NCBI GenBank assembly: GCA_947458785.1
Contig: CANGZU010000001.1
Coordinates: 4,269 to 68,268, forward strand
Length of the DNA stretch: 64,000 nucleotides
From: Ignavibacteria bacterium
GTDB lineage: Bacteria > Bacteroidota > Ignavibacteria > Kapaibacteriales > Kapaibacteriaceae
Direction: 5' to 3'
This document shows positions 4,852-26,707 of the stretch, in pieces. The notes below the pieces were generated by a model, which saw only the letters and a program-made list of their open reading frames with translations, was not told where the DNA came from and searched no databases. How positions within the stretch are numbered: the first letter of the stretch is position 1; every line of letters starts with the position of its first letter. The position numbers and the translations under genes were made by a program.

Positions 4852-5420
4852 TGTTGCACCTCATGATAGCGGAAGCACGAAACTAGGTGATCATTGACCA
4901 TGCCAGTTGCCTGCATGTGGGCGTAGACAACAGTGCTGCCAACAAATGAGAATCCTCGCTGTTTGAGGTCCTTGCTGAGACGATCAGAGACATCCGTCTT
5001 GGAAGGCAAATCACTGAGTTCATGGAATGCGTTGATAGTTGGCCGACCATCCACAAAATCCCAAATGTATGCGTCGAATGAGCCGTGGCTCTCTTGAACA
5101 CGAAGAAACGCTTGCGCGTTGGCCACAGCAGCCCTAATCTTTTGTTGATTGCGGATGATGCCAGGATCTGCCATACAGCGGATGATGTCGGTCTCGGTAA
5201 ATCTCGCTACCACGTCTGGCCGAAAACCAGCGAACGCCTCGCGAAAGTTCTCACGCTTCTTCAGAACGGTATGCCAGCTCAATCCCGCCTGCATTGTTTC
5301 GAGAATGAGGAACTCGAACAAGAGCTGATCATCATGTAATGGCAAGCCCCATTCGTGATCGTGATAGTGCATGTAGAGGTCGTCCTTCATACACCAGCCA
5401 CATCGATGGATCGCACTCAT
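4848..5420 (-). CDS. tag: DNA-3-methyladenine glycosylase I
   Basis: RCGWC...HDHEWG...LILETMQAGLSW motifs as in E. coli Tag; start refined to the Met preceding RCGW. Confidence 0.8.
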   Translation of the reverse strand: MSAIHRCGWCMKDDLYMHYHDHEWGLPLHDDQLLFEFLILETMQAGLSWHTVLKKRENFREAFAGFRPDVVARFTETDIIRCMADPGIIRNQQKIRAAVANAQAFLRVQESHGSFDAYIWDFVDGRPTINAFHELSDLPSKTDVSDRLSKDLKQRGFSFVGSTVVYAHMQATGMVNDHLVSCFRYHEVQQ

Positions 5421-6472
5421 GCCAGCTGCCCTCCACACGAAGAGCCCGAGCCTGCTGTGCAGCCAAAACAATGGCGGTCTGTAGCGATCATACGCGACGT
5501 AATCTGCGCCTCGTCGAACTCAGCAATGTGCTTGACGCGTGATGCAACTGGCATCTCAAGCATCTGATTGAAGTCACAGTCGTAGAGACGTCCATCGTAT
5601 CCAACCGATATGGTGGTTCGACACATTACACCATGCGCGGCCGCAGGGTTAAACGCATCGACCAGTGTACGCATGTATCGCTCGTAGTTGCCTGAGTTGA
5701 CCAAGAATTCAAGGAATCTCGAGATCGGCATGTTCGTTATGCAGTGCAGACTATTAAAGACAACGTTGTGCTTATCGGAAAGATTGCGCTTGAACTCCTT
5801 CTCCAGTGATGCCTGGGGTCCGGGCAGCAATGCTCCAACAGGATTGTAGACTAGGTCTATAAGAAGCCCGGAGTTTTCAATCCCGTATCCCACATCATTG
5901 AGCATTTTGAGTGCTCTGATCGAGTCGTGGAACACGCCGCCCCCTCGCTGACGATCCGTATACGTCGCGTCGTAGAACGGCAGGCTTGAGACAACATGTA
6001 CACCATGCTCAGCGTAAAACTGCGGCAGATCATGATACTTCGGATTGGCAACAATGATCGTCAGATTGCAACGCACCATTACCATTACGCCACGTGCTGA
6101 AAGCTGCTCGACAAACCAGCGAAACTCTGGATTCATCTCTGGCGCACCACCGGTGAGATCTACTGTTGAGATGGTGCTCGCATCGAGCGCATCGAGACAC
6201 TGCTGCATGATCTCGCGAGACATGATCTCGGTTCGATCGGGTCCGGCATCAACGTGACAATGCTTGCAGGCCTGGTTGCACATCTTGCCAAGATTGATCT
6301 GCAAGATTGACGGCGAAAGCGGACGGAGCTCACCGATTCCAGAGTGCATGAGCTGTTCATCAAACTGCGGCAGGGAAAGCACTGCTGCATCCTGTTGCAG
6401 AAGTTGACGTTGGACACCAACGTTGGAGAGCTCAGATCCGCGTCGGATAAGGCTGGTAGTTGCAAGAGCCAT
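5417..6472 (-). CDS. arsS: radical SAM / Cys-rich domain protein, ArsS-like (arsenosugar biosynthesis family)
   Basis: CNQACKHC radical-SAM CX3CX2C box; C-terminal Cys-rich tail CFGCTAGSGSSCGG; about 350 aa as for the TIGR04167 family. Confidence 0.65.
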   Translation of the reverse strand: MALATTSLIRRGSELSNVGVQRQLLQQDAAVLSLPQFDEQLMHSGIGELRPLSPSILQINLGKMCNQACKHCHVDAGPDRTEIMSREIMQQCLDALDASTISTVDLTGGAPEMNPEFRWFVEQLSARGVMVMVRCNLTIIVANPKYHDLPQFYAEHGVHVVSSLPFYDATYTDRQRGGGVFHDSIRALKMLNDVGYGIENSGLLIDLVYNPVGALLPGPQASLEKEFKRNLSDKHNVVFNSLHCITNMPISRFLEFLVNSGNYERYMRTLVDAFNPAAAHGVMCRTTISVGYDGRLYDCDFNQMLEMPVASRVKHIAEFDEAQITSRMIATDRHCFGCTAGSGSSCGGQLA

Positions 6473-18339: not shown

Positions 18340-19125
18340 TCAAATGTCTGTGGTTGCATGCATTTCGAACCCTCGCTCTGCGCTGAATGTGCCATAGGTA
18401 GCGGGCCGAGCGAGCCAGTGGCCGAGATTGATGTACCATCCATCCCGATGAGCAGTTGTCTCGGCCTTGTGGCGATGGCCCATGACCACGTAATCGAAGC
18501 CTTCATTGATCTTGCCGAGGGCAAAATCGCGAAGACCATCGCTCGTTCCATAGTCCTTGTGTCCAGTGTAGTCACGGCTTCCATGCGACGTGGCTGAAGC
18601 AAGTCCGATGCCCACATTCGGATGGAGCAGCCTATAGAACCACTGGGCTATTCGACTGCGCAGGACTGAACGCAGGATGAGATAGCCCGTATCGTTATGG
18701 GCCTTTCCGTCGCCATGAGCAATGTAGAATCGCTTACCATTGATTACTGCCTCGACATCTCCGCCGAGAACCTCAATGTCGAGCTCCTTATGGAAATACG
18801 TATCGTGACCGAAATCATGATTCCCCATCAGATACGTAACAGGTATCCCCTGATCTCTGAATCTGCCTAGGCAGGCAAGGGTTCGCACGTGATCGCGGGG
18901 AATGACCCGGGAGTAGTCAAACCAGAGGTCGAACAGATCGCCAACAATGAACAGGTGGCCACACGTCGGGAGAGCCCCCTCGAGAACTTTGAGCAGGTCG
19001 GACTCGCGCTGCCGGTCCTGATCGCGGGTGCCGTAGCCCAGATGTACGTCGGAAATGAACAGAGCATTTCGACCGGGCTGGAGGTCTACCGAGAGAGCAG
19101 TACGTGAAACAACTGGGTCGAACAT
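18340..19125 (-). CDS. calcineurin-like metallophosphoesterase (LpxH-like UDP-2,3-diacylglucosamine hydrolase family)
   Basis: FISDVHLG...DLFDLW...GNHDF motifs; start placed at Met 19125 (ORF extends to 19179). Confidence 0.6.
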   Translation of the reverse strand: MFDPVVSRTALSVDLQPGRNALFISDVHLGYGTRDQDRQRESDLLKVLEGALPTCGHLFIVGDLFDLWFDYSRVIPRDHVRTLACLGRFRDQGIPVTYLMGNHDFGHDTYFHKELDIEVLGGDVEAVINGKRFYIAHGDGKAHNDTGYLILRSVLRSRIAQWFYRLLHPNVGIGLASATSHGSRDYTGHKDYGTSDGLRDFALGKINEGFDYVVMGHRHKAETTAHRDGWYINLGHWLARPATYGTFSAERGFEMHATTDI

Positions 19126-19190
19126 AACGATAAGATAACGCCCAGAAGGCCTGCGACGGCTATCTTTGTGCCGAATCACGAAGTGTTATC

Positions 19191-20009
19191 ATGTCAGTTG
19201 TACCCAATACCCGCAAACGCGTAACAACCCGCAGGCTGATTGAAATGAAGTCTGCAGGGAAACCCATCGCATGCCTTACCGCATACGATGCTATCTCGGC
19301 CGCTATCCTTGATGCCTCTGGCGTCGAAGTGCTGCTGGTAGGTGACTCTGTAGGGAACGTGATTCAGGGACACGACACGACTATTCCCGTAACGCTCGAG
19401 CACATGATCTACCACACCCAAGCTGTGGTAAGAGCAGTCAGCCGTGCACTGGTGGTTACTGATATGCCCTTTATGAGTTATCAGGTATCGCCGCAGGAAG
19501 CCTTTCGGAATGCCGGGCGTCTGATGAAGGAAGCTGGCTCCGGGGCGGTCAAGCTCGAGGGTGGCCAGCGGGTCGTGGATTCGGTCAGGCTCATGACGGA
19601 AAACGGAATTCCTGTTATGGGGCACTTGGGGCTTACACCCCAGAGTATTCATCAGTTTGGGTCCTACAAGGAAAGGGGCTCTACCCCGGAAGAAGCAGAG
19701 ATCATGAAGCGTGACGCCCTGGCACTGCAAGAGGCAGGCGCATTTGCGATCGTTCTCGAGAAGATCCCAGCAACTCTGGCAGCGGAGATCACAAGCCTGC
19801 TTTCGATTCCTACAATAGGCATCGGAGCTGGGCCCGCATGTGACGGACAGATCCTTGTCTGGACAGATATGATGGGGATGTCCACGGAATTCAATCCTCG
19901 GTTCGTGCGGCGGTATGCTGATCTGCACACCGTTATGATCGAAGCAGCCTCACAGTACGTTCGCGACGTCAAAGAGCGTTCGTTCCCCTCAGACGAGGAA
20001 AGCTACTGA
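19191..20009 (+). CDS. panB: 3-methyl-2-oxobutanoate hydroxymethyltransferase
   Basis: [13 protein letters not shown]...[10 protein letters not shown]...GHLGLTPQS PanB motifs. Confidence 0.9.
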
Positions 20010-20401
20010 TGCGGAATCTTCTCATCATCGCAACGATCATGTGGGGGCTTGTGCTCGCATCATGCGATGGTTCAATGATTACCGAGCCACAAGATGTTGT
20101 GTTTCCAGACAGCAATGTGAGCTTTCGTGGACAGGTTTTGCCATTTCTGGCCGTTACCTGTGCGGTAAGTGGATGCCACGGAGACATAGGGGCAGCTGCT
20201 GGGATTCGGTTAACTTCGTACTCAACGTTACTTTTCGACAGACCCAACTTGGTTGTACCAGGCAAGCCCGACGAAAGCTTGATCATGCAAGTGCTCGACG
20301 GACGGCTTCTACATCCATGGGGGAACATCCAATCGGTCGTATCCAGCTCGCAGGTTCGTGGCATGGGTACATGGATCATCGAGGGCGCAATCAATAACTA
20401 G
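20009..20401 (+). CDS. small lipoprotein with PSCyt1-like (planctomycete cytochrome c-like) domain, atypical CX4CH
   Basis: lipobox LASC; VLPFLAVTCAVSGCHGD...IRLTSY...VVPGKPDESLIMQVL matches the PSCyt1 pattern, but the Cys are spaced CX4CH. Confidence 0.45.
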   Translation: MRNLLIIATIMWGLVLASCDGSMITEPQDVVFPDSNVSFRGQVLPFLAVTCAVSGCHGDIGAAAGIRLTSYSTLLFDRPNLVVPGKPDESLIMQVLDGRLLHPWGNIQSVVSSSQVRGMGTWIIEGAINN

Positions 20402-20432
20402 GTCACTGAACATTCTTTCGGAGTCAATTTTC

Positions 20433-21452
20433 ATGTCGACACTTCGTTCGCTTCTTATTGCCTTGGCTGGCATCGCGATCATTGCTGGATGTCAACCTAA
20501 GGCCAAACCCGTGCCAATCGAAGGCCTCGAGCTCAAGAAAGATGAGCTCCGCAAATTCGAGATCAAGGTTCCTGCGAACTGGGTTGTCCAGCACCGAAAA
20601 GGCGATATGATCGTGGCCTTTAGCACGAAGGCACATGCTGCGAGATTCACGCAGTTTGGCAAGGGGCGTGGTGGAGCAAAGGTCGAGATTCGCGCCATCG
20701 CTATGGACAGCACCACGAACATTGATTCTCTTGTCAAGCGCTCTAAGCTCGAGTTTGAAGATGGCCTTGACCGTTACCAGAAATCAGTCGCAACGTTAGG
20801 TGGTAAGTCTGGTCAGCGCTTGTTCGTTGATTTCGACCAGGAAGACGGCAAGTTCGTCACTGAATCGTATTTCGCTGAGAACGACTCAGTGGTAACGATG
20901 GTCACATTCGCAGCCTTCGGCAACACATTCGAAGACTATGAAGAAGAGTTCAAAGAGATTTTGGCATCGGTAAAGCTTGCCAAGAAAATGGCTCCACTTC
21001 CGGCTGGTGTTCCGCAGGGGCCGGGAGCACCTGTCCCCCCTAGCGATACTCTTAAGCCACACAGCGGTGGCGACTACGCGATCAGCTATCCAAAGAACTT
21101 CGAAACCAAGAAGGGTTCAGCATCAGCCATAAGCTCAACGATCTTTGTTGGAGCCCGCTTGGACTGTTCAATCCAGGTTGACGTGATCAACGCAAAGGAG
21201 CAAAACAACCTTGACCGAATCGTAGAACAGAACAAGGCGCGCTATCCAGGCGCAACGCAGAGCAATGCAACGCTCGGCGGACAGAAGTCCGTTGTGTTTG
21301 CCTACAATCCAACGGCAACCATTGCAGCGCGCGCATACTTTGCTGTCAAGGGCGATAAGATGTACCGCGTCACTGTCAACTGGAGCAAGGCAGATGAAAA
21401 GGTCTATTTACCGATCTTTGAGAAGTGTGTTCGCTCAATGAAGCTCAACTAA
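20433..21452 (+). CDS. lipoprotein with internally duplicated domain, unknown function
   Basis: lipobox IAGC; two about 150 aa halves with similar pattern; start refined to Met 20433. Confidence 0.4.
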   Translation: MSTLRSLLIALAGIAIIAGCQPKAKPVPIEGLELKKDELRKFEIKVPANWVVQHRKGDMIVAFSTKAHAARFTQFGKGRGGAKVEIRAIAMDSTTNIDSLVKRSKLEFEDGLDRYQKSVATLGGKSGQRLFVDFDQEDGKFVTESYFAENDSVVTMVTFAAFGNTFEDYEEEFKEILASVKLAKKMAPLPAGVPQGPGAPVPPSDTLKPHSGGDYAISYPKNFETKKGSASAISSTIFVGARLDCSIQVDVINAKEQNNLDRIVEQNKARYPGATQSNATLGGQKSVVFAYNPTATIAARAYFAVKGDKMYRVTVNWSKADEKVYLPIFEKCVRSMKLN

Positions 21453-21466
21453 ACGAGACCGTACAG

Positions 21467-22639
21467 ATGAAGGTAGCCGTCATCATCGCCGTCGTATTGT
21501 TCTCCAGTGCGACGGCGTTTTCTATTCCGCAGTTCTCTGCCATTTCCGGAAATCGCTGTATCAACTGTCACGTTGCCCCTTCAGGTGGCGGCGTGCGCAA
21601 CGATCTCGGTTGGTACAGCTGGTATGATGTAGGTCTTGTCCCAAGAACGAATGACCTGTTCAGCTGGTTCTACGACAAGGACTCGTCGAATCAGTTCTTT
21701 AACGGCAAGCTGATTCTTGGCATGGACACTCGCATCCAAAGTACACGGTCCTTCAACAGCGAAGCCTCGGTGCGCAGAACATTTCCAATGCAGACCTCAT
21801 TCTACTCGGCGTACACGCCAATTCCCGAGGTCACCATCGAAGGTTCAGTGAATCTGTCGACGATCGCCCTTGGGTCTGACAATCTTCCCTACCCCGGAAT
21901 GCGTCCGGCAGCAATCTCAGCAATCATTGCACCATCATTCTCTTGGCCATCACTGCGCGTCGGCATGTTCCGTCCGAACATCGGCATGCGATACGACGAC
22001 CACACCATGGCCCCCTACTCCTACACTCTTGCTACGCAGCGCAGGACAGTGATTGCCCCAGACTGGTCCGAGCTTGGTGCCGAGGTATCCTACGAGGGGC
22101 TCAAGTGGCTCTCGCTTCAGGCTGGCGTCTTCAGCAGTGAAGGTCTTTCTCAGGTTCGCATCTCCGATGGAATTGAAACATTTTCAGTTGTCAACGGCAA
22201 CCAGCCAACACTAACAGCTAGAGCAGTGCTCTGGCCGCGTGCATTCAACGACAAGCTGAACATGTGGTTCGGCGGTTCATATCTGCAGAACAACGACTTC
22301 AGCATTACGAGCGCCTTCAGCGGAATTGGACTCAGCGATGAGTTCTCACTCATGCTCGACTACACTCGCATGCATTACGATGATCGCTTTAGCTCTGAGT
22401 CTATGATGGCAGAGTTAATGTATTCGGCATCGACGTGGTTCTTCCCGTATGTTCGGGCAGAGCGTTACTATACGGATCAGTATCGAGCACGTGGCACCTA
22501 CCTGAGTAACTCTGCCACAATCGGAGCTCAGATCTTTTTGATGCCCTATATCGAGCTGCGTCCGGAATACCGCATCTGGGACACGTGGATGACTGGTTAT
22601 ACGTCTCGCTGGAACGTGCAACTGCACTTTTTCTATTGA
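21467..22639 (+). CDS. Cyc2-like fused monoheme cytochrome c-porin (outer membrane)
   Basis: signal peptide, then a single CINCH (CXXCH) about 10 aa into the mature protein, then about 350 aa of alternating amphipathic beta strands ending in aromatic FFY. Confidence 0.5.
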   Translation: MKVAVIIAVVLFSSATAFSIPQFSAISGNRCINCHVAPSGGGVRNDLGWYSWYDVGLVPRTNDLFSWFYDKDSSNQFFNGKLILGMDTRIQSTRSFNSEASVRRTFPMQTSFYSAYTPIPEVTIEGSVNLSTIALGSDNLPYPGMRPAAISAIIAPSFSWPSLRVGMFRPNIGMRYDDHTMAPYSYTLATQRRTVIAPDWSELGAEVSYEGLKWLSLQAGVFSSEGLSQVRISDGIETFSVVNGNQPTLTARAVLWPRAFNDKLNMWFGGSYLQNNDFSITSAFSGIGLSDEFSLMLDYTRMHYDDRFSSESMMAELMYSASTWFFPYVRAERYYTDQYRARGTYLSNSATIGAQIFLMPYIELRPEYRIWDTWMTGYTSRWNVQLHFFY

Positions 22640-22659
22640 TCGCAACAGGAGCCCCGTTC

Positions 22660-22959
22660 ATGAAACAGAACATCCTCATCATCATTGGAGTTGTAGGCAT
22701 CCTTGTAGGGGGCTGGCTCTGGGTTAAGGACGGCATGCATGTGTTCTCCAAGGATCGTGAAGAAGTGGTCCGCGAATTCAAGGACGAACTTTTCGGGACA
22801 ACCCGACGCGAAGTTGAGTACATCCCCGCATTTAAGTTTGGCCTACTTCCAGTCGATGTAACTGTAGCTGATTTCCCACGCTGCTACGCATTCGTAGGCA
22901 GTGTCTCAGTTGCACTCATTGGATTCGGCCTCTGGCGCAAACGCTCCTCTAGCAAGTAG
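22660..22959 (+). CDS. small two-helix membrane protein, unknown function
   Basis: 99 aa with N- and C-terminal hydrophobic helices; directly downstream of the Cyc2-like gene. Confidence 0.35.
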   Translation: MKQNILIIIGVVGILVGGWLWVKDGMHVFSKDREEVVREFKDELFGTTRREVEYIPAFKFGLLPVDVTVADFPRCYAFVGSVSVALIGFGLWRKRSSSK

Positions 22960-22967
22960 CACCTACC

Positions 22968-23060
22968 TCGTCATTCGTCATTGGTAATTCGTCATTCGTC
23001 ATTGGTAATTCGTCATTCGTCATTGGTAATTCGTCATTCGTCATTGGTAATTCGTCATTA
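22968..23060. repeat. perfect 21-bp tandem repeat x4.4 (TCGTCATTCGTCATTGGTAAT)
   Basis: read directly; each unit contains two TCGTCATT octamers; fills the intergenic space immediately 5' of the Rieske gene. Confidence 0.95.
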
Positions 23061-23068
23061 GCACGCCC

Positions 23069-23542
23069 ATGTCTACCTCATCTCGTCGTTCATTCCTGCA
23101 GCAGGCTGCTGCATCTGTTGGACTCGTTCTATCTGCTTCTACAGTGGCAACGCTTGTTGCCGGTTGTGAACAGGACGAAAGTCAGCCAACATCACCAGGC
23201 AAGACATATGATGTAAGTCTTGCAGCGTTTCCAGAGCTCAACACCGTTGGCAGTATCATCCAGACTACCATTGCTGGCGTGAATAACGGGGAGATGGTCT
23301 TCATCTCTCGTATCGATGCGCAGACGTTTGTGGTCTTCAGCACGGTCTGTACGCATTCAGGTTGCGGCGTGGGTCTGCCAATCGATGCTGCAAGCAATTG
23401 CGTTTGTCCGTGCCACAAGGCGGAGTTTGCACGCAGTAATGGTGCCGTACTAAGGCAGCCAACGTCTGGATCAGCTACGGACCTGCCCCGGTTTTCTTCG
23501 ACATACAATGCCTCTTCCAACGTGCTCACGATAACGGTCTAA
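23069..23542 (+). CDS. Tat-exported Rieske [2Fe-2S] protein
   Basis: SRRSFLQQAAA twin-arginine signal; CTHSGC and CPCH Rieske boxes. Confidence 0.8.
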   Translation: MSTSSRRSFLQQAAASVGLVLSASTVATLVAGCEQDESQPTSPGKTYDVSLAAFPELNTVGSIIQTTIAGVNNGEMVFISRIDAQTFVVFSTVCTHSGCGVGLPIDAASNCVCPCHKAEFARSNGAVLRQPTSGSATDLPRFSSTYNASSNVLTITV

Positions 23543-23544
23543 GC

Positions 23545-24615
23545 GTGCCAATTCCCTCAGAGTATCATGACGCCGTGCGCGACGCCGTCTACGACGTAAC
23601 CGCACAGCATAAGCACCTGTCGTCGAGTATAGAGCGCGTCTTTCGTGAGTTTAGACCCGATGCAGAAACTGCGCGCGCCGTGCGTGCAGCTATCTATCAG
23701 GCTGTGCGCTATGACGATGCCGATGCTGCCATTGACGGAGCACTGGACGGAGTTGTTGATCAGCGTCTTGCGCACTTCCCTGAGTGGTTGCGTGTTCGCA
23801 TTCGCGAGGTCTTTACCGACAATGCAGACAACGTGCTGACGTCGATGCTCAGCGATGCGTCAACGTTTATACGCGTCAACACACACCGCATCGATATCGC
23901 CACATGTGTGGCAGCGCTCGCCCCTTACGCGCCGTTGTATCTCGAGAATGAGATCATTCGTATCGACGAACCATTTGGTCTGTACACATCTGAAGCATTC
24001 CAGCGCGGCTGGTTCGAGCAGCAGGACATCAATTCGTACAAGGCTGCATGCGAGCTACCGTGTACGCCAGGTATGCGCATTGTAGACGCTTGCGCTGGTG
24101 CGGGCGGCAAGTCTCTCGTGTTCGCTAGCCACATGAAGAACAAGGGACGCATCATTGCCCTGGACACGCAAGCCTCCAAGCTTGATGCACTTCGCACGCG
24201 ATCAACGCGCGCTGGCGTAGACATTATCGAAACTCGCGAGATAACAACCACGAAAGTGGTAAAGCGACTTCACGAAACAGCGGACGGTGTTTTTATCGAT
24301 GTGCCGTGCACAGGCACGGGCGTGATCCGTCGCAATCCCGACATCCTCTATCGCCTCACCCCAGAATCTCTGCAGGAGTTGGTTAACATTCAGGCCGACA
24401 TCTTGCGGCGGTCCGCACCGATTGCTAAGGTTGGCGCAACAGTTGTTTACACAACGTGCAGCGTGCTTCCCGAAGAGGGACGCAACCAGATCAGTGCGTT
24501 TCTGGCAACTGAGTCTGGTGCTAAGTTTTCACTCCAGCATGAATGGTCCACACTGCCCAACGATGCAGGGGGCGACGGGTTCTACGTAGCACGGCTCAAG
24601 CGCGAGGCTGTGTGA
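23545..24615 (+). CDS. RsmB/Sun (NOL1/NOP2) family rRNA cytosine-C5 methyltransferase
   Basis: VDACAGAGGKS SAM-binding motif and IDVPCTGTG catalytic motif. Confidence 0.8.
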   Translation: MPIPSEYHDAVRDAVYDVTAQHKHLSSSIERVFREFRPDAETARAVRAAIYQAVRYDDADAAIDGALDGVVDQRLAHFPEWLRVRIREVFTDNADNVLTSMLSDASTFIRVNTHRIDIATCVAALAPYAPLYLENEIIRIDEPFGLYTSEAFQRGWFEQQDINSYKAACELPCTPGMRIVDACAGAGGKSLVFASHMKNKGRIIALDTQASKLDALRTRSTRAGVDIIETREITTTKVVKRLHETADGVFIDVPCTGTGVIRRNPDILYRLTPESLQELVNIQADILRRSAPIAKVGATVVYTTCSVLPEEGRNQISAFLATESGAKFSLQHEWSTLPNDAGGDGFYVARLKREAV

Positions 24616-24616
24616 G

Positions 24617-24994
24617 ATGAACGCCCCAGAACAGATCACCGTGATCTTCGATGGGATGTGCAACCTCTGCGATGCCACCGTAAACCATTTGCATCGGCAC
24701 GACATAAACCGTCAGCTACGCTACATACCGTTTCAGGGCGAAGAGGGCTCGGCACTGCTCCGCAGACACGGCGTTATGGGTCCGCCCGACTCGGTATATG
24801 TTATCACGCCATCGGGAGAATTCTACACAGAAGATCTGGCCATGATCTATCTCTTTACCCTCCTGGGTGGATGGCACAAGCCCCTTGCCTACCTGATCAA
24901 GGCCATTCCTCGCTTGATCAGGCGTCCGGTGTATCAGTGGATGTCACGAAACCGGTATGCGATGTTCGGCAAGCGAGAGACCTGTCGGTATTGA
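24617..24994 (+). CDS. DCC1-like thiol-disulfide oxidoreductase (DUF393)
   Basis: VIFDGMCNLCD motif near the N-terminus. Confidence 0.7.
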   Translation: MNAPEQITVIFDGMCNLCDATVNHLHRHDINRQLRYIPFQGEEGSALLRRHGVMGPPDSVYVITPSGEFYTEDLAMIYLFTLLGGWHKPLAYLIKAIPRLIRRPVYQWMSRNRYAMFGKRETCRY

Positions 24995-25069
24995 CCTCTT
25001 GGAAATCCCCTGTAGTTCGGTATCTTTGCCGTCCTTGTCAAAAGTGAACCCATTCGGGAGTCAAGAATT

Positions 25070-25393
25070 ATGAGTACCTACATCGTTAATCCTGTCAAGG
25101 TCCGCATGGACGAGTCTGCAAAGGGCTCGATCTATAAGTCTATCGTTGCCATGGGCTTACGCTCACGTCAGATCAACGACCAGATCAAGACACAGATCTC
25201 CGAGCGCCTTGCCGACGTTATCGTCGACACGGACGAGGCGGAAGGTCCAAATGCAGACCAGATCGCAATCAGCAAGGAGTTTGACCTTCTTCCGAAGCCT
25301 ACGTTCTTGGCGATGAAGGAAATGACAGACGGTCAGATCCATGTCCGCACGGAGCCGCTTCCAGTTGCAGCTCCTTTGGTAGCAGAGGAATAA
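25070..25393 (+). CDS. rpoZ: probable DNA-directed RNA polymerase subunit omega
   Basis: 107 aa; SIYKSIVAMGLRSRQIN resembles the omega core; conserved rpoZ-coaBC linkage. Confidence 0.5.
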   Translation: MSTYIVNPVKVRMDESAKGSIYKSIVAMGLRSRQINDQIKTQISERLADVIVDTDEAEGPNADQIAISKEFDLLPKPTFLAMKEMTDGQIHVRTEPLPVAAPLVAEE

Positions 25394-25453: not shown

Positions 25454-26707
25454 ATGAACATCCTGCTTGGAATAACCGGAAGCGTTTCGGCCTACAAAAC
25501 GCCATGGCTTGTGCGAGATCTGCGCAAGGCCGGCCACGACGTGCGCGTGGTGATGACTCCATCTGCCCGCCAGTTCGTAGCGCCACTGGCCCTGGAGGCG
25601 GTATCACTGCATTCGGTGATCATCGACCCCTACGATCCAGCAATTCAGCAAGGGGGCTCATGGCACGTGCATCTTGCTCAGTGGGCCGATTTGATCTTGA
25701 TCGCCCCTTGCTCAGCAACGACGTTGGCACGCCTTGCCACAGGGTTATGCGACACAGCTCTCATGACTGTTGTCTGCTCACGGACAGCCGACACTGAGCT
25801 GATCGTGTTCCCGGCCATGGACACCGACATGTGGCTGCAACCATCGACCAAGCGCAATGTTGAACAACTGCGCGCTGACGGCATCACCGTTGTAGATCCA
25901 GACTCAGGCGAGCTTGCTTCCGGACTGATAGGTCAAGGCAGACTGCCAGAGATTGGGAAGATCGTTGGGATAGTAGCGAGTGCCGAGTACCGAGTGCCGA
26001 GCAGCGAAGTTGGTCGTCCTCGCGAAAGCGGGGACCCAGCACTCGGAACACGGCACTCGGCACTCGGCACTCGGAACTCGCTGCTTATAACCGCTGGTCC
26101 CACCCATGAACGCATTGATGCCGTACGCTCGATCGTAAATCATGCCACGGGTACAATGGGATTTGCACTTGCAGAAGCTGCACAGAAGCGTGGGTACCTG
26201 GTGACGCTTGTGACGGGTCCAACAAATCTTCCAGCACCATTTGGCGTGGAACGCATAGATGTTGTGAGCGCACAAGAGATGTACGAAGCAGTGATGAAGC
26301 ACAGAGATGTGGACGCATTCATCATGGCGGCAGCAGTGGCTGACTTTACCCCATTGAAGCCGTCACAGCAGAAGATCAAGAAGGAACAACTCGGCGATAC
26401 TCTTTCGATAGAGCTTACCCGCACCCACGACATTCTCGCAGAGATCGGCAAGGGTAAGACAGAACGTCAACGCGTTGTCGGGTTTGCTCTCGAATCCGAC
26501 GACGTCGTCGAGAACGCGAAGCGAAAGCTCGCAACGAAGAGTGCAGACATGATTATTGCCAATCAGGCAGGCGTGCCGAACAGCGGGTTTGGCGGCGGAC
26601 AGAATACCATAACGATCGTTACGAATGGTTCGGATCCAAAGACCTATCCGGCGATGTCGAAACGCGCATGTGCCGAGGTGATCCTCGATGCATTGGAGAA
26701 CCTGTGA
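25454..26707 (+). CDS. coaBC: bifunctional phosphopantothenoylcysteine decarboxylase / phosphopantothenate-cysteine ligase
   Basis: N-terminal flavoprotein domain; LLITAGPTHERIDAVRSIVNHATGTMGFALAEAA CoaB signature; linker lengthened by a repeat element. Confidence 0.9.
   Translation: MNILLGITGSVSAYKTPWLVRDLRKAGHDVRVVMTPSARQFVAPLALEAVSLHSVIIDPYDPAIQQGGSWHVHLAQWADLILIAPCSATTLARLATGLCDTALMTVVCSRTADTELIVFPAMDTDMWLQPSTKRNVEQLRADGITVVDPDSGELASGLIGQGRLPEIGKIVGIVASAEYRVPSSEVGRPRESGDPALGTRHSALGTRNSLLITAGPTHERIDAVRSIVNHATGTMGFALAEAAQKRGYLVTLVTGPTNLPAPFGVERIDVVSAQEMYEAVMKHRDVDAFIMAAAVADFTPLKPSQQKIKKEQLGDTLSIELTRTHDILAEIGKGKTERQRVVGFALESDDVVENAKRKLATKSADMIIANQAGVPNSGFGGGQNTITIVTNGSDPKTYPAMSKRACAEVILDALENL
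25975..26085. repeat. imperfect palindromic element: arms of GCCGAGT/ACTCGGC heptamer repeats around a CGCGAAAGCG tetraloop core
   Basis: read directly; in-frame within the coaBC interdomain linker (encodes ...AEYRVPSSEVGRPRESGDPALGTRHSALGTRNS...). Confidence 0.85.

Follow-up and report, generated by a model that had tools for sequence, protein, structure and literature searches.

The closest described counterparts of the protein considered here, a predicted monohaem c-type cytochrome of 130 amino acids (aa) encoded in a 64,000-nucleotide (nt) stretch of the genome of an Ignavibacteria bacterium (Kapaibacteriaceae; assembly GCA_947458785.1, contig CANGZU010000001.1, positions 4,269 to 68,268 of the forward strand; this whole stretch is called the window), come from several known systems. 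The PSCyt1 domain (PF07635) of Planctomycetes is usually the N-terminal module of DUF1549/DUF1553 proteins of >1000 aa. PccH of Geobacter sulfurreducens (4RLR, PF22297) is a single-haem periplasmic protein of 129 aa which, unlike the window protein, has a CxxCH motif and His/Met ligation. It carries electrons at low potential (−35 mV) and is required for electron uptake (PMC13591261). FoxE, the dihaem Fe(II) oxidoreductase of Rhodobacter ferrooxidans SW2 (5MAB), is a periplasmic electron-transfer protein tied to iron oxidation, and its haems have His/Met ligation, each haem receiving its Met from the opposite domain (PMC10654088). In the Cyc2/Cyc1 pathway, known from Acidithiobacillus, Zetaproteobacteria, Gallionellaceae and Chlorobium, Cyc2 is described as having a signal peptide, a single CxxCH, a 16-strand barrel and at least 365 aa, with OprO and OprP as structural homologues (PMC8406198).

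The window protein shares with PSCyt1 an N-terminal helix, the C..CH-G segment, L-x-L, PG-x-P-x-x-S-x-L and a C-terminal W-I-x-x-G-A, and differs from it in being a stand-alone lipoprotein from Kapabacteria/Ignavibacteria with CX4CH instead of CxxCH and a His-Pro instead of a Met-Pro loop. FoxE is its best solved relative by profile comparison, with PG-x-P-x-x-S, Met-Pro-Pro and W-I-x-x-G-A in register, but the similarity is remote, and FoxE has two domains, CxxCH motifs and crosswise His/Met ligation and is not a lipoprotein. PccH resembles the window protein in length and in its single haem, and its segment V-x-Y-x-x-x-I-x-P-I-x-x-x-x-C-..-C-H-G aligns with the family. Finally, a 390-aa protein encoded two genes downstream has the signal peptide, single CxxCH, OprO/OprP-like barrel and length (>365 aa) of Cyc2, and a small periplasmic cytochrome near such a gene would parallel Cyc1; unlike the Cyc2/Cyc1 pathway, however, the window cluster includes a Rieske lipoprotein but lacks an oxidase and rusticyanin, the module does not always come with the small cytochrome, and the likeness to Cyc2 is architectural. 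Our data place the protein, by sequence comparison, in a large PSCyt1-related family in which CX4CH appears to be the usual haem-attachment motif, and show that its one near-constant genomic partner is panB.

The cytochrome reading frame is a real, conserved gene, because it has homologues down to E 1.7e-71 and orthologues in more than 80 species-level genomes; both the frame and the peptide strings quoted in the initial annotation, which had been made from the sequence alone, proved correct (Table 1). The N terminus has the pattern of an export signal expected of a c-type cytochrome, 18 residues followed by Cys19. This Cys is invariant in both orthologue alignments (A1, n = 32; A2) and is preceded by small residues at −1 and −2 in the 32 sequences of A1, in agreement with the earlier assignment as a lipoprotein. 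A word-indexed search gave 57 homologues, all of 127–138 aa except one of 194 aa; the named ones come from metagenome-assembled genomes (MAGs) of Kapabacteria, Ignavibacteria, Bacteroidota or Chlorobiota and are labelled "hypothetical" or "c-type cytochrome domain-containing protein". An antisense open reading frame (ORF) at 19969–20394(−) was discarded as a by-product of the conserved plus-strand gene.

The sole Pfam match of the cytochrome is PSCyt1, which it reaches with 24.8 bits (E 3.5e-5; gathering threshold 22), so that the relationship proposed from the domain pattern holds in a direct search. The match is partial, with residues 55–95 on profile positions 3–45 of 59; the first Cys, displaced by the motif insertion, lies outside it, and so does the Met-Pro end (profile positions 46–59). 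Where the canonical domain starts with CxxCH, the window protein has C51-x4-C56-H57, and near the domain end His102-Pro103 stands instead of P-x-M-P. We built a family profile from 32 homologues and scored it against 1.84 billion cluster representatives, which gave 14,129 matches at E ≤ 1e-3 and 1,870 at E ≤ 1e-10. All six large matches scanned with Pfam have strong PSCyt1 scores (73–178 bits), and two of them, P0309 and P0237 (family profile E 2.4e-26 and 4.1e-31), show the classic PSCyt1-PSCyt2(DUF1549)-PSD1(DUF1553) architecture with PSCyt1 at 110–178 bits. Individually, 54 of 98 single-domain relatives match PSCyt1 (E ≤ 0.01). The homology thus rests on more than a borderline single-sequence score, and since the family profile retrieves bona fide PSCyt1-DUF1549-DUF1553 proteins, we regard it as sound; the window protein can be assigned to the PSCyt1 superfamily both by score and by transitive homology.

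Among the best 150 profile matches, 148 were new cluster representatives; 88 of these are single-domain proteins shorter than 200 aa, and many others contain 3–8 tandem copies of a unit of ~95 residues. The initial annotation was right that the protein stands alone, but, judging by these relatives, this ~130-aa form seems to be common and not exceptional. The multi-repeat proteins (P0178–P0325; 3–8 copies of the ~95-aa domain) combine CX2CH, CX4CH and occasionally CX3CH or CX5CH within one polypeptide, and some also carry fn3, Ig-like or LRR domains or PSCyt2/PSD1 as fusions. Source names of ten relatives were all absent or "hypothetical", and we found no characterised member of the His-type CX4CH lipoprotein subfamily. 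The window protein departs from PSCyt1 in the two signature features, CxxCH and Met-Pro. The PccH family PF22297 has no match to the window protein at E ≤ 1 and is matched by one of the 98 relatives. In the NCBIfam scan the Leptospira LIC11213 lipoprotein family (NF047812) remained below threshold (16.9 bits against a cutoff of 100), and matches to Shiga-toxin B were rejected as spurious.

The attachment motif differs from the canonical one in its spacing, and none of the 146 aligned single-domain relatives lacks either Cys or the His. In the 32-sequence alignment C19, C51, C56 and H57 are likewise invariant, and members with C-x-x-G-G-C-H are separated from those with C-G-Q-C-H by a clean two-column gap. 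Among the 359 domains of the retrieved set we counted CX4CH 200 times, CX2CH 154 times, CX3CH and CX5CH twice each and no motif once; CX4CH occurs in 130 of 145 single-domain relatives and in 70 of 214 repeat domains, the top profile matches being biased towards CX4CH because the query profile is itself mostly of this type. A neighbour-joining (NJ) tree of the 80 species-level orthologues, rooted on Met-type paralogues (a distance tree without support values), unites the five CX2CH orthologues (L029–L032, L039) in one clade deep inside CX4CH lineages; CX4CH would therefore be ancestral in the orthologue group, and CX2CH a secondary two-residue deletion. We conclude from these comparisons that CX4CH is most probably the ancestral and dominant spacing of this subfamily. 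The spacing had been called rare, and this view has to be abandoned for the closest relatives retrieved, in which it is the majority state.

Of the two options initially offered for the motif, unusual haem attachment or a haem-free derivative, the first is favoured: Cys, Cys and His are strictly kept through a change in spacing, which points to a working attachment site and not to a decayed one. This pattern argues well for covalent attachment of haem through Cys51 and Cys56, with His57 as the proximal ligand. Sites with two Cys four residues apart followed by His, as in the window protein, are present in tetrahaem cytochromes c3 as well as in haem 3 of hydrazine dehydrogenase (HDH), and covalent haem is proven there. 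For HDH haem 3, CX4CH is documented as a proven, if uncommon, haem-binding motif (PMC6469936), and the site is also listed in PMC11492766. The HDH and c3 sites belong to multihaem proteins of unrelated folds, in which CX4CH is an exception, whereas in the window protein it is the sole haem site of a class-I-like monohaem domain and in its family it is the norm. Other strings of this kind in the window were set aside: CKHCH in ORF 5420–6472(−) belongs to a 351-aa radical-SAM protein with a C-terminal DUF3641, not to a cytochrome, and the remaining CxxCH/CX4CH strings fall within short, unsupported ORFs.

The sixth ligand is less certain. The column of His102 (L-L-H-P-W-G) holds His in 115 of 146 single-domain relatives, and most of the others have P-x-M-P, in which Met lies two residues downstream, as in the Met-Pro loop typical of PSCyt1. 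Wherever the loop of a panB-linked orthologue was read, it is of the His type; the Met-type loci L071, L082, L084, L085 and L087 are not panB-linked and represent paralogues. The H57–H102 spacing is 45 residues, the same as between His16 and Met61 of Pseudomonas c551. A profile of 98 single-domain members aligns with FoxE at E 4.1e-4 across both haem domains, with the R-M-P-P-G loop of FoxE opposite the His-Pro loop and its W-I-K-Q-G-A opposite W122-I-x-E-G-A; it reaches PccH at E 0.016 over the N-terminal ~25 residues only, and the C-terminal haem domain of hydrazine synthase alpha (5C2V) at E 0.16, with the W-I-x-x-G-A motif aligned. The AlphaFold2 (AF2) model of the cytochrome (pLDDT 80, pTM 0.69) predicts a helix at residues 39–50, before the motif, and another at 113–124, at the C terminus, an arrangement as in class I cytochromes. 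With moderate support, we take His102 to be the probable distal ligand, which would give His/His ligation and hence a low-spin, probably lower-potential haem.

Table 1. Coordinates of the cytochrome gene, its parts and its neighbours in the window
Feature	Position	Strand	Remarks
panB (3-methyl-2-oxobutanoate hydroxymethyltransferase)	19191..20009	+	Pfam Pantoate_transf in orthologous loci
Predicted PSCyt1-superfamily monohaem c-type cytochrome gene	20009..20401	+	ATG-start ORF, 130 aa, lipoprotein; from Pfam and homologues
Signal peptide with lipobox L-A-S-C	20009..20065	+	Cys19 codon 20063–20065; read from sequence
CX4CH motif C51-A-V-S-G-C56-H57 (CAVSGCH, residues 51–57)	20159..20179	+	H57, putative proximal axial ligand
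His102-Pro103, putative distal axial ligand	20312..20317	+	In place of Met-Pro of PSCyt1 and FoxE
C-terminal helix with WIxEGAxNN signature	20345..20398	+	Invariant G118, W122, E125-G126-A127, N130
339-aa lipoprotein, lipobox IAGC	20433..21452	+	True downstream neighbour of the cytochrome
390-aa Cyc2-like fused cytochrome-porin	21467..22639	+	Signal peptide MKVAVIIAVVLFSSATAFS, one CINCH, beta-barrel ending FFY
99-aa small membrane protein	22660..22959	+	Constant partner of the porin-cytochrome
157-aa Rieske [2Fe-2S] protein	23069..23542	+	Twin-arginine (TAT) signal and lipobox LVAGC; bc1/b6f/arsenite-oxidase type

Genomic context was compared by scanning one genome per species, which gave 80 orthologue loci (locus numbers carry the prefix L), and neighbours were scored by single-sequence and then by profile searches. 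The gene panB is directly upstream of the cytochrome in 69 of the 80 species, including distant lineages with no other shared neighbour. In the window its TGA stop shares one nucleotide with the ATG of the cytochrome (TGATG); across loci the predicted cytochrome start overlaps the panB stop or lies at most 30 nt from it in 59 of 65 cases, and the lipobox Cys codon follows the panB stop at a median distance of 60 nt. The typical overlap of stop and start in loci L008–L083 is either this 1-nt TGATG or 4 nt. Thus, panB is the only near-universal neighbour of the cytochrome, and the two genes form an ancient, tightly coupled pair. A scan for promoters and terminators over 18900–25200 gave nothing above shuffled expectation, the total of terminator-like sites being no higher than in shuffles, and operon structure is therefore deduced from spacing alone. 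One such site, a 13-bp stem (8 G-C pairs) followed by a T-run at 21487–21517(+), falls within the part of the porin-cytochrome gene that encodes the signal peptide. Downstream of rsmB are genes for a DCC1-like thiol-disulfide oxidoreductase, 24617–24994(+), and coaBC, 25454–26707(+), which recur in several syntenic loci with examined gene calls; with panB upstream and coaBC downstream, two genes of the pantothenate/CoA pathway flank the redox block.

In the window, panB is followed on the same strand and at short distances by the genes for the cytochrome, the 339-aa lipoprotein, the 390-aa CxxCH protein, the 99-aa membrane protein and the TAT-Rieske lipoprotein and then by rsmB, in this order. 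The cytochrome had been placed immediately upstream of the Cyc2-like gene, but the lipoprotein gene lies between them. This lipoprotein has weak DcrB and faint PsbP_2 similarity in Pfam, with otherwise nothing useful in Pfam or NCBIfam and no sequence match in the PDB; of the first 87 loci, 43 have it beside the cytochrome, and in some of them the porin-cytochrome is missing.

As for the 390-aa protein, its likeness to Cyc2 is supported at the level of architecture. Besides a signal peptide, a single N-terminal CxxCH, in which C31, C34 and H35 are invariant in 50 homologues, and more than the 365 aa required, its AF2 model (pTM 0.81) shows a confident beta-barrel with strands across residues 82–389. 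In Foldseek this model matches porins at E ~1e-8 to 1e-9, including OprO (4rjw, TMq 0.58) and OprP (2o4v, TMq 0.55), as expected of an OprO/OprP-like barrel of ~16 strands, the strand number being approximate. The protein has no Pfam or NCBIfam match; it has 222 homologues, and the 120 among the matches listed are all unnamed or "hypothetical". The designation "Cyc2-like" is justified in this architectural sense. The Rieske protein scores 32 bits with Pfam Rieske and matches b6f Rieske and AioB in the PDB, and all its NCBIfam scores are below cutoffs, including the TAT-signal model (15.1 against 16.7 bits). A literature search on Cyc2 in Kapabacteria returned only a statement that non-phototrophic close relatives of photoferrotrophic Chlorobi lack Cyc2, and the Cyc2 literature searched contains no mention of Ignavibacteria, Kapabacteria or Bacteroidota/Bacteroidetes.

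Unlike panB, the downstream genes are not constant. The identical gene order is seen in six metagenome loci, with both CX4CH and CX2CH members, and the block occurs in some form at 43 of the first 87 loci, but the arrangement of lipoprotein, porin-cytochrome, membrane protein and Rieske protein is confined to the closest clade and to L078 and L080. A lipoprotein of the 339-aa type persists without the rest of the block in L075–L077, L081 and L083, and at approximately 38 of the 80 orthologue loci no block gene is found within 7 kb even with profile searches, the downstream genes there being varied and unrelated. Conversely, distant homologues of the porin-cytochrome (L088, L089, L091; 37–40% identity) keep the ~100-aa membrane protein, YceI and Rieske genes, and no PSCyt1-like cytochrome, 339-aa lipoprotein or panB is found within 7 kb of them. 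In the MAG GCA_030430495.1 the porin-cytochrome (L091) and a locus with panB and the cytochrome only (L079) are on different contigs. The functional module is thus the porin-cytochrome with the small membrane protein and the Rieske protein, which occurs elsewhere without this cytochrome, and the cytochrome is a panB-coupled gene that stands next to the Cyc2-like module in this lineage by happenstance.

Two side observations concern these loci. The cluster of L078 (7379–13477), from one distant Kapabacteria MAG, has additional genes: the porin-cytochrome is preceded by a 359-aa lipoprotein with CGTCH, and the Rieske gene is followed by those for a 128-aa cytochrome with CNACH and a 496-aa multihaem protein. 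Synteny of the Kapabacteria type was also found in L009, L016, L020, L024, L030, L031 and L039, with titles naming Patescibacteria, Didemnitutus, Chitinophaga pinensis, Hyphomicrobiales or Bradyrhizobiaceae; these MAGs are probably mislabelled bins or records.

Overall, we consider it moderately probable that the window protein is a tethered periplasmic monohaem one-electron carrier, possibly exchanging electrons with the Cyc2-like module. According to this model, the gene would be transcribed with panB as an ancient bicistron, probably with translational coupling, and its product would be a lipid-anchored, periplasm-facing c-type cytochrome with a mature mass of ~11 kDa, belonging to a PSCyt1/FoxE/PccH-related branch of the class-I-like cytochromes c. 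Haem would be bound covalently by Cys51 and Cys56, with His57 as the proximal and, less firmly, His102 as the distal ligand, giving a His/His and probably lower-potential haem. The protein would serve as a one-electron carrier in the periplasm that may exchange electrons with the module two genes downstream. As to its partners, we lean weakly towards a general carrier: since the module and the cytochrome are separable units, such a role seems more likely than a dedicated one. FoxE and PccH are both periplasmic carriers in inward electron transfer, and the weak similarity of the cytochrome to them is suggestive.

Several observations weigh against this model. Solved cytochromes are matched weakly (E 4e-4 to 0.16), and a Foldseek search of the PDB with the apo AF2 model gave nothing significant, the best being hydrazine synthase alpha at E 1.5. 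In the paralogues the Met stands two residues away from the position of His102, and 21% of relatives lack this His, so its ligation is unproven; because the equivalent Met of FoxE ligates the haem of the other domain, the loop could also act in trans, in a dimer. A His/His haem of low potential would be ill suited to donate electrons to terminal oxidases. The coupling with panB, a gene of pantothenate biosynthesis, extends over an entire class-level clade but has no obvious functional logic, and the gene neighbourhood does not discriminate between partners. The whole region from a histidine ammonia-lyase gene to rsmB is syntenic in close relatives, so that adjacency carries little functional weight and may reflect vertical descent.

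The next possibility is that the cytochrome serves solely as the periplasmic shuttle in a Cyc2-like pathway of iron oxidation or extracellular electron transfer. It would exchange electrons with the porin-cytochrome in the outer membrane, and their further route would lead to the Rieske protein or into the respiratory chain. This reading draws on the tight same-strand cluster from cytochrome to Rieske gene in the window and about 35 species, on the recurrence of this arrangement in the distant L078 and L080, the former with three more cytochrome genes, on the Cyc2 architecture of the neighbour and on the inward electron transfer performed by the closest solved relatives, FoxE and PccH. The orthologues lacking the block, the distant modules lacking a PSCyt1-like cytochrome, the separate contigs in GCA_030430495.1 and the conservation of the surrounding synteny, housekeeping genes included, which leaves adjacency by descent as an explanation, make such a dedicated role possible but rather doubtful. 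The proposal of a periplasmic shuttle for Cyc2 made in the initial annotation is therefore retained as regards a carrier and weakened as regards Cyc2, the neighbourhood being lineage-specific.

A bolder version, which we regard as unlikely, is that the His-type CX4CH lipoprotein cytochromes constitute a subclass of class-I-like cytochrome c not described so far, in which the attachment loop is widened and the haem has bis-His ligation, perhaps in trans as known from FoxE. In Kapabacteria/Ignavibacteria, which are non-phototrophic relatives of Chlorobi, they would then join with the PsbP-like lipoprotein, the Cyc2-like porin-cytochrome, the small membrane protein and the TAT-exported Rieske lipoprotein in an unrecognised outer-membrane-to-periplasm conduit that oxidises iron or exchanges electrons with the outside of the cell.

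Another role for the haem, in redox or gas sensing, in haem or iron handling or as a structural subunit of a periplasmic complex with the 339-aa lipoprotein, would suit the constant panB coupling and variable downstream genes, which fit no known respiratory operon, and the cytochrome–lipoprotein pairs without a porin in L075–L077, L081 and L083; to our knowledge, and according to the Pfam entry, PSCyt1 domains have no known function even in planctomycetes. Small single-domain six-coordinate cytochromes are, however, usually carriers, the protein has no output or enzymatic domain, and its relatives FoxE and PccH are electron-transfer proteins, so we consider this improbable.

A degenerate haem-free derivative, with the widened Cys pair as a disulfide or other metal site, is suggested by the departure of CX4CH from the canonical motif, by the Pfam alignment that omits the first Cys and the Met-Pro end and by the fact that acceptance of CX4CH by the host maturation system is not a given, but it is very improbable in view of the C, C and H invariant across 146 relatives, the candidate sixth ligand, for which His and Met, both classic ligands of haem, replace each other, the clade that reverted to CX2CH, the side-by-side occurrence of CX4CH and CX2CH in multi-repeat cytochromes of this superfamily and the proven CX4CH haem site elsewhere.

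Taken together, these results correct a guilt-by-association inference drawn from the Cyc2-like neighbour and make the cytochrome a weaker lead into iron metabolism than was supposed initially. The Cyc2-like porin-cytochrome of Ignavibacteria/Kapabacteria has constant partners of its own, the ~100-aa membrane protein and a bc-type Rieske lipoprotein, with YceI in addition in distant Ignavibacteria. We know of no description of a module of porin-cytochrome, small membrane protein and Rieske protein for Cyc2 systems, and it deserves its own study. As a case for cytochrome biogenesis and motif-based annotation, the cytochrome itself is moderately interesting. Its family is a natural experiment on variation of the haem-attachment motif in a simple monohaem cytochrome, with CX4CH as the apparently ancestral and dominant state, at least one reversion to CX2CH, CX3CH and CX5CH in repeat relatives and a His-to-Met change at the presumed sixth-ligand loop. 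Counting cytochromes by CxxCH only will miss hundreds of such proteins, and routine handling of CX4CH by non-proteobacterial maturation systems becomes directly testable.

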